Source: Alloascoidea hylecoeti
Lineage: Eukaryota
Direction: 5' to 3'
Assembly (NCBI GenBank): GCA_001600815.1
Contig: BCKZ01000006.1
Location: forward strand, 1,088,137 to 1,152,136
DNA length: 64,000 bases
Shown here: one piece after another, positions 28,033 to 44,893 of the stretch
Numbering within the stretch: the first letter of the stretch is position 1
Layout: each line of letters begins with the position of its first letter
Program-made: the position numbers and the translations under genes
Notes under the pieces: generated by a model
The model's input: the letters and a program-made list of their open reading frames with translations, nothing else
Databases searched by the model: none
What the model was told of the DNA's origin: nothing

Positions 28033-28865
28033 TCAAAGGTATATTGCGTCTTTTAATGAACCTTTTAACTTATTTTCAAGCGGAGCTGTATGTATCACCC
28101 TGTATTTCTGCTGGAAATCCCTATAACATAAATACTAGAATGAGTCCATTAATTCATTTCTAGATTTTCTTCAGATTTAAGGGAAGTTTCAATCGGGTTT
28201 TGTTTAACTGTTGAAATACTCATTTCAAAAAGTTTAGTTAGTTGGATTTCTTTTTAGAATCAGAATTACGCTCAATCTCGTTAAATGTAGTACTAGAAGT
28301 GAAATGTTTAAAGCTTAAGGATGAGTTTCCTTTGGATGAGTGTAAAAGAGACAAATGCACGCGCTTAGAAAAGTCCAAGCTGTTAGTTCTGAGTTAGTTA
28401 TATTATAAATAATAATAATAATAATAAATATGTGTCTTTCGTCTGGGGTATTAAGCTATAATTAAACCGATCGTGATGAAAATAATTAGATAATTAAATA
28501 CAATATAGTTATAATTCAGATATTTGGAGAGATTAAAGTTGAAAAATCAAAGGAAATTAAAGGGATAATTAAATAAATGCCATATTTATAAATGATTCTT
28601 GGATCGAAAATCATATTGAGAAGATGTTTAGTCAGAATACGTACTTCATTCGCTTAGTTTGGTGTCTATTTCATTTTAGGATTACAATTAAGGGAAATCT
28701 CGCTTAGAATGATTCTAGAATTTGTTTTATTTGTATTTGAAAAGAAGGACCCCTTTTAGTGTTTTCACTTATGAAATTTCCAGCAGAAATTCAGTGTGAT
28801 ACATACAGCTCCGCTTGGAAGAAAATAGGCTAAATGATTCTTTAGGAGACGCAATATATCTTTAA
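28033..28865. repeat. Inverted repeat with ~115-bp arms (28033-28147 / 28746-28865), probably Tc1-transposase derived
   Basis: caagcggagctgtatgtatcac.ctg.atttctgctggaaat matches the reverse complement at 28776-28817. The arms translate as FQQKxxVIHTAP (cf. FQQDNAxxHT). Confidence 0.8.
28465..28615 (+). repeat. Direct copy of 26341-26480
   Basis: Shared blocks aaccgatcgtga, ggataattaaataa..gccatatttataa and tcttggatcgaaaatcatat, in the same order. Confidence 0.8.
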
Positions 28866-29178: not shown

Positions 29179-30294
29179 TCATTTTGTATCAAAAGGTCTA
29201 ATAACTAATTTTTCATTAGATACTTTATTATCTTTGGATACCAAATATGCTTCATTTAATGAATTCAATCCATTTGGAAGAACCTTAACTGGAATATGTT
29301 TAATTAATCCTTTATTAACAGCCTCAGCAACAACAGGTTGAAATTGTTTTACAAATTCAGCAATTTCAGGATTAGAAATTTTATCGGGACCAATGAAATA
29401 AAAAGGATCACCAGATGAAAAATATGCTAAAGTTTGAGTAATTTTAACATTTGATTTAAGATTTTTAATATCTTCTGATTTAACTCCTAATAAATTATCA
29501 AAAATAACAGGTTTTGTTGAAGATACTGAATCATGGGTTGCTTGAATAGTATTTGGTAATGAAATTGTATCTAATGCATAAACAATATTTTCACCTCCAA
29601 TAGATTTAATTTGATCAACAACATCAGAATCATGATAATCAACAACAAAATCTGCTCCTAATTCTTTTAATTCATCATGGTTTTTCTTAGATGCTGTCGC
29701 AATTACTTTCCATCCAATAAGTTTACCAAATTGAATTGCAACTTGTCCAGTTGATGAAGCACCACCCCAAACTAATAAATATTTTTCTGATTCTTCAGGT
29801 TTAGTTTTACTCAATCCAAATGATCCTCCTAAATTATGTAACAAACTAATTATAATAGTTACTAAAGAAACACCTAATGTAGAAGCACCTTCGAAAGTAG
29901 TTGGAATACCCCTTGGAATCTCATCAGATTCGGATCTTTTCAAACTATCCAATTTAAAAAATGCGTGAGATTTAAGAGCACCGTATTGTGCGAAAGATCC
30001 AGTGTGTGGTCCAGCTTTATTGGAACCGTGTATTAAACCAATTCCGACATCTCCAACGGAGATATTGGTTACTTCAGAACCAATCTTAACTACAGTACCT
30101 GCTAAATCACATCCTGCGATGGCACCAGGTCCAGTTAACCCATAAAAGAGATGTTTCCAGTCTGTGGGGTTAATTGCAGCAGCTTCGATCTTAACAAGGA
30201 TTTCGTTTGGTTTAATGGAAGGGACTGGAACTTCCTTGATGATGAGGGAATCTGTTCCTGTAACAGCAGCCGTTTGTTGTGATGGAATTGACAT
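29179..30294 (-). CDS. MDR-family enoyl-reductase-like oxidoreductase (YNL134C/YLR460C/ToxD-like)
   Basis: AAINPTDWKH, GCDLAGTVV, LLVWGGASSTGQ and DYHD motifs. Confidence 0.9.
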   Translation of the reverse strand: MSIPSQQTAAVTGTDSLIIKEVPVPSIKPNEILVKIEAAAINPTDWKHLFYGLTGPGAIAGCDLAGTVVKIGSEVTNISVGDVGIGLIHGSNKAGPHTGSFAQYGALKSHAFFKLDSLKRSESDEIPRGIPTTFEGASTLGVSLVTIIISLLHNLGGSFGLSKTKPEESEKYLLVWGGASSTGQVAIQFGKLIGWKVIATASKKNHDELKELGADFVVDYHDSDVVDQIKSIGGENIVYALDTISLPNTIQATHDSVSSTKPVIFDNLLGVKSEDIKNLKSNVKITQTLAYFSSGDPFYFIGPDKISNPEIAEFVKQFQPVVAEAVNKGLIKHIPVKVLPNGLNSLNEAYLVSKDNKVSNEKLVIRPFDTK

Positions 30295-31149
30295 TTGTGA
30301 CAGATATTCAATTGAGGTGGATTTAAAAAGATTTGAAGCGAAAGTTGATGCTTTTATATTACCGGAAGAATTGCGATAACTGGGGTCGCTTAATTGATGA
30401 TTGATAATAACATCATATATTTATGCTTATTAATTATATTCCAGACCCTTCTAATAAATAATAATTATAATTCAAAGAAGCGATGTCAGCGAAGTTTGGA
30501 AAAAAAGTGGAGTTAGCGGAGTAGATCATTATCATAACTTCTTTATGATTCCATGAAGCCGTATAAATTTAGTGAAACAATTATTATTATTAATTGGATT
30601 TGTTGTAATACTCTATGATCCAGATGATCCTGTACCTGTGGGTGTTGTTGGTATCGACTAATAACTATATTCTATAACTATATTCTATTAAAGTTCACAA
30701 ACGACACGACGTCTATAATCTTATAAGAGTACAATCTAAGATGATGGAGTTCTCAAAAGAGAATACTTCATGAATAGTTTGTGATTATAAAAGTCTATAA
30801 TCCTAAGGATCCAATCACACACACACATCTAATAATAATCTCTGAACTTTTAAAAGTCTATGATATCATAAGAATCCATTTTAAGCGAACTATACCCCCT
30901 AAAAGAATTAGTTTTAGCAAAGCTGATGTACGAGATGTAGACAGATAGCAGTCAGGAAAGAGTTGAAGGAAAATGAGTGGTCCACACACAGACAAAATAA
31001 TATCCCTATAATGTGTTTTATCTAGAATATTTAAAGAAACGAATATTCTGTAGTTTTTAATAAAATAATCAAGTCAATCAGACATTACAATTTAACAAGA
31101 TAAACAATTTATTTTTAACATTAGTTAAATACTTTAAAGCTTATTTAGA

Positions 31150-31918
31150 TATAGACAATCCGGGTAACACAAAATTACACACAGAGTTAACTATGGGAGA
31201 AGCATTATTCAATGAAGTCAATACCTGTTAATGGGCTGTAAGATTAAAAGTTTGACTTTTATATTTGTTGATTGCCATACTAAAACATGCTCTTACCTGA
31301 AACTCTGTTTTCTTGGACGAAACCCTCATTCTTTTGTTTAATTGTTGACGAAAACCCCTATGTTTGAGAATATTGATCTACAATATTTCCAGCTTTAGAT
31401 CCTGTACTTGTCAAAAATGATAGTGAATGATCCAATAATCTCATTCTAACTCCGTTTACCAAACTTTCAGAAGATACTAAATTACAAATCAGTTTCCAAC
31501 TTTCAGGTACAACATAGTGGGGTGGAATCCTCTTATCGAAGTAAGTCTCAAATCTTGTTAATGCTGCAATGCAAGGAATAACTTCAATTACAAGTTGTAT
31601 TCCTTACATGGCAAAGTTAGCAAGATTTGAGAGTTACTTCGATAGGAGAATTCCTCCAACTATCTTGTACTTGAAAGTTGGAATGTCATTAGTTTCTTCT
31701 AATTAGAGGATTGGTAAATGTAACTAGAATGTATCTATTGAATTATTTTACTTCATTATCACATTATCTAAAGTCGGAACTACTGATATTTCCAAATATA
31801 TTCCTTCGATAAGTAAATAAAAGAATGTGGATTTTGATTTATGAGGGCCCAGTTACCTGTGAGACTGTGTTTTAGTATGACAATCATCAAATATAAGGCC
31901 AAACTTTTAATCTTACAG
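31150..31918. mobile_element. Helitron/PIF1-type helicase remnant duplicated as a palindrome (arms ~31236-31584 and 31592-31918)
   Basis: Right arm (+): IPPTILYLKVG ... RAQLPVRLCFSMTI.KY.GQTFN. Left arm (-): IPPH..YLKVG..ICNLVSSESLVNGVR ... VRACFSMAINKYKSQTFN ... GIDFIE*CFSHS*LCV. These match the Helitron helicase C-terminal motifs PPHxLxLKVG, NGTR, QFPVRLxFAMTINKSQGQT and FSHGQLYV. Confidence 0.8.
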
Positions 31919-32825
31919 TCATCCTGAAAAGAATACAATTACAACCTTTCACGAAAATGAAAATAGTGAAAGAATAAGATTTCAATAATTATACGTGATA
32001 AAGTAACTATGAAGCTAATATTTATGTAATCCCAAATGGATCTAAAGATAGTCATCATATACTTTATTTGTAGTATCGTATTATCGATCCTCTTGACGGG
32101 TACAAACGAGGGTTTCAATGATCTTCCCCCAAACCTTTAATATATTCCAATTCATTTATATAAATCTCTTCAGAGACCTAGATAGTTTTAAGTAATTAGG
32201 TACATACATACAATAAATGTGTCTTAAACTTTAGATGTTTATTTCAGTTCATTTATTCACACAACTGGATGACCTGATTTCGTGGCTTCACAGTACCATC
32301 ATTTCGTCTCATAAAAACTTAATTACGTGTATAAGACAGGTTTAAGGTTTAAGGTTTAAGATATCATATCAACAAATGATATCGCAAAGATAAGTGAAGA
32401 ATATTTTAATAGTATGATAATAAGTTTGACCGTTGTAATTCTGCTGAGTTCAGGAATGATAGTCGGCCGAGTTGGAAATTGGTGATCGTGGGCTTAAAGC
32501 CTTAAACTAATAATGTCAATTTTCAACCCAAGACATTTTGATTGATTTTGACGATCGATATCATATATTATACTAATTAACTAGGTTGTTATTGAAGATG
32601 CCTGCTCTTTTTTTTATTGCGGGGATGTCGAATGACTCGTGTGACCTTTTGGTGTAACAAATCAATTTCCAATTGGGAATAATTAAAAAAGCGAAATAAC
32701 CGTTGAAATTCCGAAGTTTGCGAATATCTAAGTTTTAATATTTTATTTCTTTAGTATATCTATTTTAGTTCCTAATAAAGTACTATTATAATTCTATTAT
32801 CTATGTTTATGTTTGTTTATATTAT

Positions 32826-33857
32826 TTATTGAATTGATCTGAAAAAATCCATACAAGAAGTAAAAACAACTAATAAAATACCACCACCTGGACCTAATCT
32901 TAAGACTTTTGGTAAATAACCTTTATATAAAGCACCAAAACCTTCTTCTTTAAAAATTGTATAAACACCTGGGAAAGCCCAATTATATTTTGGTACAACA
33001 CCAGGTATTTTAGTAGTTGATTGAATTCTTGATTTAACAACATCAAATGGAGTATTTATTGTTGTACCAACAGTACCACCAATTGCACCACTTAATAAAT
33101 CGTTTAAAGTTTTTTCAGTTGATGATTTTGCTTTTGGTAATAATTCACGGACTTTGAAAATAACGCCAAAATAACCAGCATTCCAAGCGATATGTCTCCA
33201 TAATGTTGATTCTAAACCTTTATATAATGCTAATATACCTTCTTGTTTAACAACTTTTGAAACAACATCGATCATACCATTATATTTTCCAATTGATGAT
33301 TTATCTTGTAAACGGATTTTAACTAATTCAAATGGTACAACTACAATTGCCTCAGTTGCTCCTGCTGTTGCACCTGTTAAAACAGATAATGGTTGATTCA
33401 TTTTTTCCATTCCAAATTGTCTTCTGTAGAATTTCCCCCACTCATCATTAGCAGCAAACTTAGTAGCACTTTTAAAATGACATTTTTATTAGTTATTTGT
33501 GAGTAATAATGATATTTATTGTATAGTATGAACTTACCGCTTTGGTGCTTCCATAAGAATTGGAGCTGTTATACCACGATATAAGGCAGAAACACTAATT
33601 AATATTGATTATGGTTAGTAAAATATAAGATTATGATAATGAGAGTGTCAGACGTACCCCTCATGTTTGATAATCTTGGAAAAACAATCAAACATGCCAC
33701 TATAAGCATCTTTCCCAGTACCTTTACCAACTTGTAATTGAACTCTGGTCTTAATGACATCCAAAGGATACATAAGCAAGATTTCGGAAACACCAGCAAT
33801 AGCGCCGGATGCAAACTGATAAATGAAAGGCAGAGGTTTATCGTTGGGAGATGACAT
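32826..33857 (-). CDS. ODC1: Mitochondrial 2-oxodicarboxylate carrier; exons 33857-33658, 33594-33538, 33468-32826
   Basis: KPLPFIYQFASGAIAGVSE, PLDVIKTR, MEAPKRATKF, PFELVKIR, PFDVVKSRIQ and KVLRLGPGGGILL. Introns are phase-consistent. Confidence 0.92.
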
Positions 33858-43246: not shown

Positions 43247-43717
43247 TTATACATCCTCAGCCCATTTATTTTCCTCTATGATTGCAGCTTCCTCTGCTGG
43301 AGTAAAATCATTATGAACATTAAAAGTTTCTCGGAGTTGTTCTGCAGTTTTTCCCTTCATCATATTAGCTACAGTTTTGCAACCGGCATCCAAGAGTTTC
43401 TTTATGTTTAAATAGTTGGCTGCCAAAATGATTTCAAATAACATTTTTTGATCAAGTTGAAAAAACTTTTGATCCCATTCACCTACTTCGGCCAATTTCT
43501 TATCCCTTTCATCCTCAACAGGGGGTTTGTCATCCTGGTGATGATCACACCATTCAATAACCTTCTTTAAAATATTGGACTTGACACCTCCAACAGGAAT
43601 AATTTCATTGTCACCTAAGTCTTCAATAAAGTTTTTGATTAAAACAGAACATTCAGCAATCTTTCGTTCAATTTTGAACTCTTCACCATCGGCGGATATT
43701 AAAGTTATATTTGGCAT
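43247..43717 (-). CDS. SKP1: Skp1-family SCF adaptor, intronless and divergent (probable paralog)
   Basis: [41 protein letters not shown] and NDFTP.EE motifs. Confidence 0.93.
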
Positions 43718-44749
43718 TGTTGTTAAAAAGAATAAAAAAATGATTTTATTATAAAGGGGTGTAATCAGAAAGAAAGAAACTGGAAGTGAAATATTTGCTG
43801 TTTATATGAGTATACGTAATGGACGGTCCATAAAGCTTAATTTGCTATGCATTTAATTATTTATATGTATTTTAAGTGCCTTCCTAATCTGGTAGTATAT
43901 TATGCATAAATCAGGACTATACACTTGCGTTTTCTCTTTTTTGATAGCACTCCAAGGAACAATTCTGAAAAATCATGAAAGTGGAGTACTTGTGATTTGT
44001 TAAAAACAACTTCCGAGTGAGAAGAGCCGAAGTAACTAGGGATGTGGTTTAAAGATTGCTTGGTGTTGTCTCAGGATGTTTGTGATGCTTATTGTATTCA
44101 GTTAACGATTGATCGGTCGGTGGTTACAGGATCCGTGAAAAGTATACTTGAAGACAGTTCCATCGGGCTTTCGAAGCTTAAAATATTTATAAAATAAGGA
44201 ATTCCGGGGATTCATGTTTTACGGTTTGAACTGGAACTCGGAAAGGTAGTCACAATTGTTAATAGAGTGATTGGGGATCCTAATACTATATCCATGCGTT
44301 GTAAAGCTGCCTTTTATGATTTTAAGAGTGCTATATACCACATCACACCACAAGCATACGACAACAGTACCAAACAACCATAACATATTTATATCTGAAA
44401 AATACTCACATGAATAAATATCTTACAAAATTTAAGAAAATATACTCATATATTTGTGATATAATATGAATAATTTCTTTCATTAAAAACGATCTGAATT
44501 CTACTATCAGCGCATTAACTGGAAACAAATATCAATAAATGATTGATAATGGTAATCCCAAGTACAATTTGAAAAGGAGTTGAAATGAGGTCAAATGATA
44601 AATATATTGAAAATATATTATAAGGAACCTACATAAAACAAATTGGTTTAAATAAGTTTAGGAGCTCTCTAAACCCTTTCAACTACAATATTTTCTTCAA
44701 ACTTCTTTATAAGTTTTCTTGATTATTTTACTTACCCTTCCAATCCACA

Positions 44750-44893
44750 ATGCCATACCTACAATTAACATCCTCCGATAGTGAACTGTTCCAAATCGAA
44801 CAAAATATTTCCGAACGTTCCGTTCTACTCAATAATATGATTGAAGACTTGGGTGATGAAGCTCGAAATATTCTTCGGGAAATACGCGCTTAA
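44750..44893 (+). pseudogene. Truncated SKP1 5' fragment (47 codons; not in the ORF track)
   Basis: MPYLQLTSSDSELFQIEQNISERSVLLNNMIEDLGDEA aligns with the Skp1 N-terminus, then runs into unrelated sequence and TAA. Confidence 0.85.

Follow-up and report, generated by a model that had tools for sequence, protein, structure and literature searches.

A palindrome in a budding yeast, most likely an old and decayed foldback of a Helitron-type helicase pseudogene tail

Is the long palindrome that lies between two genes of this budding yeast a working source of small RNAs, or is it a fossil? We addressed this question in a 64-kb stretch of DNA (the window, meaning the whole stretch that was analysed). 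A preliminary description of the window had offered two readings of the palindrome, a hairpin locus that would keep a memory of a transposon and, as a fallback, the fossil of a template-switch or rolling-circle foldback. The fallback proved to be the best explanation here. Most likely, the tail of a Helitron-type helicase pseudogene folded back here long ago, and the product has decayed and is inert, while a working small-RNA locus is unlikely. About 680 bases are involved in total, and they are made up as follows.

31236-31584, minus strand: left arm, a remnant of a PIF1-family helicase, likely of Helitron type, from the 2B domain through the conserved C-terminal motif.
31585-31591: spacer CAATTAC (7 nt), the centre of symmetry, between the complementary pentamers AACTT and AAGTT.
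31592-31918, plus strand: right arm, an inverted partial copy of the left arm with more deletions and an abrupt end at about 31918.

The inverted-repeat blocks are collinear from 31236/31918 inward to the centre. A self-blastn of the region against the window returned a single inverted match, 31236-31918, with 69.9% identity over 721 columns (E 4.8e-78), and its coordinates match the two inverted copies and 7-nt loop that had been described earlier. No further copy of the palindrome region was found in the 64-kb window by blastn. When one arm was aligned globally against the other, 252 columns matched, 71 mismatched and 38 held gaps, the latter falling into 12 indel events; the arms are 78% identical without gaps and 70% identical with gaps, at a K2P distance of 0.26. 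Measured per 40 columns, their identity is 0.72-0.88 in the inner and outermost parts and is worst, at 0.55-0.65, in the middle. Folding the region as RNA, a check proposed with the preliminary description, yielded a strong hairpin: the predicted energy is -278.6 kcal/mol, compared with -148.8 +/- 6.9 in 20 shuffles (z -18.9). The predicted hairpin pairs 271 of 341 positions, and its longest uninterrupted helices measure 19, 19, 17 and 15 bp. Rfam searches in E-value mode also returned miRNA precursors of plant and animal families at 31523-31654. Their scores at the palindrome centre were far below the gathering scores (50.4 vs 130 and 36.4 vs 92), and the candidate was rejected; such matches are generic hairpin likeness and no evidence for a miRNA.

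Two other inverted repeats were observed in the window. One has arms of about 85-90 nt at 28035-28120 and 28776-28863, some 655 bp apart, just 3' of the dehydrogenase-like gene listed below. Its arms share 84% column identity, with a 45-nt core at 93%, and the structure (28035-28863) could be a small TIR-bearing, MITE-like element or another foldback. The other is a 130-nt repeat at 43611-43740 and 44727-44856, 73% complementary and with 986 nt between its arms, which overlaps the end of a 156-aa ORF (43247-43717).

The palindrome is a genuine feature of the genome. Contigs from four public DNA runs, which represent three samples from three studies, were compared with the window over 30000-33200; the samples include a wood-decay metagenome and another strain, and one sample may itself be the source of the window. 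In three of the four runs, a single contig covered 30974-33200 with zero differences from the window. The fourth run, from the other strain, supplied a contig over 31427-33200 that crosses the palindrome centre with few differences (6 single-base changes and a few indels across about 1.8 kb). Since the centre is bridged in three independent samples and the arms have diverged, the palindrome is not an assembly artefact. Arm divergence had been put forward against an artefact from the start; this was borne out, and independent contigs bridge the centre as well. The chance that the structure is an artefact, or that it arose from two independent head-to-head insertions of the same element, is extremely small. 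Arm divergence makes collapse or chimera implausible when contigs of three samples from three studies span the centre, and the two arms, only 7 nt apart, come together at a single point of the helicase and have nucleotide-level idiosyncrasies in common, which points to one event. Because the other strain differs so little from the window, the arm divergence of 22-30% must be far older than within-species variation. Counting contigs of at least 90% likeness, depth in the four runs stays at one copy all the way from 31177 to 33200. It follows that these runs hold no other copy of the palindrome at 90% likeness or more, and no repeated genomic copies at that likeness were found anywhere across 31177-33200 in the four DNA runs.

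The window is AT-rich (30.5% G+C), and the palindrome sits in a 2.5-kb gap between two minus-strand genes. The features around it are listed here.

29179-30294, minus strand: zinc-dehydrogenase-like ORF.
30958-31097: multi-copy block, about 90% alike elsewhere in the genome, ending beside the helicase remnant.
31160-31168, plus strand: Reb1-type motif CCGGGTAAC, inside the helicase remnant.
32826-33857, minus strand: mitochondrial-carrier gene with an intron.

The Reb1-type site lies 76 bp to the left of the palindrome. Within it, CCGGGTAA (at 31160-31167) is enriched in the window: five sites were counted where 0.37 would be expected, and the motif seems to be a marker of promoters here. The other four CCGGGTAA sites (2836, 12402, 33998 and 47999) are found approximately 140-510 bp upstream of ORF starts. 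The preliminary description had placed a Reb1-type promoter motif just outside the left arm. The site is real and its motif is promoter-marking; however, it is located inside the helicase remnant, and 866 bp separate it from the ATG of the dehydrogenase-like gene downstream. It may equally be part of the upstream region of that gene or be a coincidence of old coding sequence.

From 30107 to 31097, upstream of the dehydrogenase-like gene and within its 5' end, the sequence is a patchwork of multi-copy blocks. Within 30107-31069, contig depth climbs locally to 2-8 times that of single-copy sequence, and contigs of other loci join 30297 to 30566, 30631 to 30856 and 30799 to 30958. A separate 2.7-kb contig, present in three runs, matches 30958-31097 with 11 differences and 4 gaps. 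Such a patchwork suggests that the members of a gene family have some of their upstream sequence in common.

Some observations bear on the yeast itself. CTG codons number 12 of 6244 in 13 ORFs of the window and are mostly near N-termini, and TTA is the dominant leucine codon. With CTG codons so rare and so poorly placed, their decoding in this yeast is unreadable from the window, and no tRNA genes were found in its 64 kb. The carbamoyl-phosphate synthase small subunit marks the organism as a budding yeast without a near named relative: its best named matches are 74-80% identical and come from several orders, and this protein is too conserved to place the yeast in one of them.

What, then, are the arms made of? 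The preliminary description held that both encode a broken C-terminal part of a PIF1/Helitron helicase. Searches with the window's own frames returned no helicase. Pfam searches with the six read-through frames (stops replaced by X) gave no PIF1-related family at E<=1. Phmmer and hmmsearch against the PDB, using a 147-aa frame and two 2-row arm profiles, found no helicase at E<=10, the chains of Helraiser and of cellular Pif1 being alike unmatched by window frames at that threshold. Of 93 candidates from a word-indexed protein search of longer proteins with a 2-row profile, not one reached E<=10, and a protein atlas held no usable match to window frames. A 151-aa frame was also run with HMMER against the full set of 1.84 billion representatives, and no helicase was found; the lone match (E 2e-4), a repetitive beta-helix protein, was discarded as spurious.

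Searches in the opposite direction, from helicases to the window, singled out the arms. Comparators were obtained by scanning metagenome contigs with a degenerate pattern of a short helicase motif, which gave 119 loci. Nine long comparator ORFs around the motif were considered: six carry Helitron_like_N, PIF1 and Pif1_2B, and three carry PIF1 and Pif1_2B only. The C-terminus of one comparator matched Helraiser at 4.9e-45 vs 9e-13 for human PIF1 and 6e-9 for yeast Pif1. When an HMM of 23 Helitron-type C-termini was run on six-frame chunks of the whole window, exactly two matches were returned, one per arm, with 19.7 bits in the left arm (31243-31341, E 6.6e-5) and 19.4 bits in the right (31820-31891, E 7.8e-5). 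Both E-values are about 7e-5, and the next best match in the window scored 4.3 bits. Weak matches to the 2B domain were found by HMM and tblastn at the correct distance upstream of the motif in both arms. Of the 32 HSPs that tblastn gave with the 23 C-termini at E<=1, 29 fall in 31060-31909.

A second comparator set was assembled through homology instead of the motif; it consisted of 120 full-length relatives, the majority of which have Helitron_like_N recorded. Tblastn of these relatives against the 64-kb window put every one of the 18 HSPs at E<=0.01, and 77 of the 82 at E<=0.1, inside 31000-31960. The set also yielded linked HSP pairs, 2B domain plus motif, on each arm: 31492-31379 with 31338-31234 on the left (E 1.3e-5), and 31650-31814 with 31832-31909 on the right (E 8e-4). 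In the left arm, a frameshift-aware alignment places profile positions 46-144 at 31528->31243 over 92 codons, of which 31 are identical to the profile majority and 55 positive, along a path with three frameshifts and no stops. The right arm is poorer, with only 26 clearly alignable codons in its profile alignment at 31832-31909, 13 of them identical. In all, the surviving helicase amounts to about 100 codons, at most about 165, with frameshifts. The conserved C-terminal helicase motif of the family is altered in the same way in both arms.

Since the first comparators had been picked by a motif that resembles the window, circularity checks were made. The helicase signal depends heavily on one conserved motif: with the motif columns removed, plain HMMER did not single out the arms, and their upstream part scored 4.1 and 3.3 bits (E 4.9 and 9.1). 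A frameshift-aware profile score was then compared between the arms and 996 controls (600 dinucleotide shuffles and 396 other segments of the window). The left arm scored 63.9 and the right arm 52.3, whereas the controls had a mean of 21 and a maximum of 34.9. After the 12 fished motif columns were masked, the arms scored 34.1 and 33.3 vs a control maximum of 32.6, so that none of the 996 controls reached either. The masked frameshift-aware alignment and the comparator set chosen by homology make the helicase origin well supported. HMM, tblastn and the frameshift-aware profile thus agree with the earlier reading that both arms stem from the C-terminal portion of a PIF1-family helicase, apparently of Helitron type. 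The accompanying claim, that what folded back was coding sequence as opposed to two TIRs, likewise holds.

Helitrons encode a RepHel protein that has an HUH Rep domain (Pfam Helitron_like_N) as well as a helicase. Their termini are marked by TC at the 5' end and by CTRR with a subterminal hairpin at the 3' end, and they insert between A and T. No Rep domain was found in the 64-kb window by tblastn with 12 long comparator ORFs and the 120 full-length relatives. Significant tblastn matches are confined to the C-terminal helicase part, the N-terminal helicase motifs being absent, and the best pre-helicase match outside the arms reached E 0.14 at 32430-32498. As the upstream part of the element is gone, no Helitron 5' end can exist. 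When 31000-31150 was read by eye, a short hairpin beside CTAG was seen within a block shared with another locus. The locus therefore resembles the RepHel of Helitrons such as Helraiser (PDB 7lcc) in having a Pif1 2B domain followed by the conserved C-terminal motif, in the right order and with the right spacing. Unlike a RepHel gene, it is without a Rep/HUH domain, N-terminal helicase motifs, a second copy at 90% likeness or more or, as far as 31000-31150 was read by eye, recognisable termini, and its helicase motif is already degenerate in both arms, with frameshifts present. The name Helitron, as used in the preliminary description, was apt insofar as the helicase is of Helitron type by its likeness to RepHel, but it is too strong for the locus as a whole, where only the helicase tail is present.

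With so little of the protein surviving, the arms might instead be a pseudogene of a cellular Pif1 or Rrm3 paralogue. The surviving helicase tail is common to all PIF1-family proteins, and the absence of a Rep domain would suit such an origin. Nevertheless, we regard this as very unlikely. Within its conserved stretch the left arm agrees with a RepHel comparator at 12/20 residues, with Helraiser at 9/20 and with human PIF1, the cellular side of this comparison, at 4/20; for the right arm the figures are 10/14, 8/14 and 7/14, and all of these tallies are small and were read off by eye. The distance from the 2B domain to the motif likewise agrees with the Helitron-type profile: across 99 positions the alignment has 7 profile gaps and 2 codon insertions. 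A helicase of Helitron type is the likely identity on these sequence comparisons.

How did this helicase tail come to face itself? The left side of the palindrome has a feature that the right side appears to be missing.

31060-31235, minus strand: left flank, a probable but weakly supported continuation of the helicase C-terminus past the palindrome.

With one comparator, tblastn gave an alignment that keeps to one frame from 31314 to 31060 (E 4e-5, 33% of 85 residues); the motif part contributes the bulk of its score. A profile restricted to the part that follows the motif matched 31178-31225 at only 2.1 bits (E 28 window-wide). Past 31918, neither profile nor tblastn found helicase similarity on the plus strand. 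The asymmetry, in which the left side continues and the right side stops, is thus probable. As the left flank probably runs on and the right arm stops dead, the right arm would be the copy, and the left arm is probably the original.

Fold-back inverted duplications form at broken or stalled DNA ends, through a hairpin-capped break or a template switch, as known from studies of yeast rearrangements. The hallmark joint of such events is a short spacer with inverted microhomology, and the palindrome has one, with 5 nt of microhomology at its centre. Based on this end product, we infer the following order of events. A Helitron-type PIF1-family helicase gene would formerly have stood on the minus strand, probably degenerate already, since both arms share the same motif departure and the copied gene was thus probably defective. 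A break or stalled copying may have occurred inside the gene, at what is now 31588. The end would then have folded back on the 5-nt inverted microhomology, primed itself and copied about 330-340 nt, resulting in the inverted duplication, with everything upstream of the break lost or displaced. Both arms would subsequently have decayed independently and, it appears, neutrally. Because the frameshifts differ between the arms, most of the decay is placed after the duplication; its signs are the K2P distance of 0.26, the 12 indel events and the separate frameshifts in each arm. The locus resembles known fold-back inverted duplications in its very short spacer, its inverted microhomology and its arms, one probably continuous and the other ending abruptly. 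It differs from fold-back rearrangements obtained in the laboratory in being old, decayed, natural and intergenic, and its mechanism is read from the end product alone.

A related explanation puts the foldback inside the transposon: the rolling-circle replication of a Helitron could have switched strands and made a snap-back, defective copy that was inserted already palindromic. The sequence is that of a Helitron-type helicase, and a rolling-circle strand switch would give the same end structure as a foldback made by host repair. However, no recognisable element ends, no Rep remnant and, in the DNA runs, no second copy were seen, and the apparent continuation on the left side only suits a local duplication as well or better. 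We consider a rolling-circle origin unlikely.

A further alternative is that the palindrome is transcribed and works. A transcript arising near the Reb1-type site and running through both arms would form an imperfect hairpin of about 340 bp, and siRNAs cut from it by the budding-yeast Dicer would silence Helitron helicase transcripts. The strength of the predicted fold (z -18.9, with 271/341 positions paired) and the promoter-marking motif 76 bp outside the left arm speak for this idea, and there is a precedent among yeasts. In Naumovozyma castellii, palindromic loci yield 74.1% of siRNA reads according to the accessible part of one report (PMC7528652), which agrees with the role as a major siRNA source that had been ascribed to them in the preliminary description. 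The palindrome is like these loci in being a long inverted repeat of repeat- or transposon-like origin that would form a hairpin if transcribed; what sets it apart is an arm identity of no more than 70-78%, interrupted by 12 indel events, and that it is known from DNA alone. Inverted duplications that silence transposons also include Mu killer of maize and similar loci, whose arms match almost perfectly and whose promoter and targets are known. Our locus resembles Mu killer in that a portion of a transposon gene is present as an inverted duplication, an architecture able to make a silencing hairpin, but its arms, at 70-78% identity, match far less well.

Several further points weigh against a functional hairpin. 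RNAi machinery occurs in only roughly 20% of budding-yeast species, as stated in the available portion of a survey of 1,154 genomes (PMC13017519), and an additional source, as far as its available text goes, describes the distribution of RNAi in these yeasts as patchy (PMC5499181). The arms have decayed freely, and transitions that preserve G:U pairing have no strand bias, 24 favouring a plus-strand transcript vs 17 for a minus-strand one. The DNA runs reveal no further copy at or above 90% identity, which leaves siRNAs with no obvious target. We therefore judge it highly unlikely that siRNAs from such a hairpin silence Helitron helicase transcripts. By analogy, one could picture a yeast with Argonaute and Dicer in which the Reb1-flanked hairpin is transcribed as a 'memory' locus, its siRNAs directed at the transcripts of Helitron helicases, but for this scenario we see only the slightest of chances.

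Taken together, the palindrome is probably a dead fossil, in which an already degenerate helicase gene underwent a foldback inverted duplication and then decayed neutrally, with no demonstrated function; its lack of function is something that we infer from this decay and the single-copy state of the locus. Both categories are familiar ones, and the locus adds one more case to transposon-gene fossils and to foldback inverted duplications. In the literature searched, budding-yeast Helitrons appear in no curated account. The subject is touched on, in the portions of these sources that are accessible, by a Pfam-level screen (PMC10799480) and an automated repeat table (PMC12693490).

In conclusion, if the locus were a true source of small RNAs it would matter much more, and nothing here points that way. 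As it stands, the palindrome is a mildly interesting trace of a Helitron-type helicase gene that was likely once present in an AT-rich budding-yeast lineage, and it offers a natural, long-surviving example of what is most likely a foldback inverted duplication.
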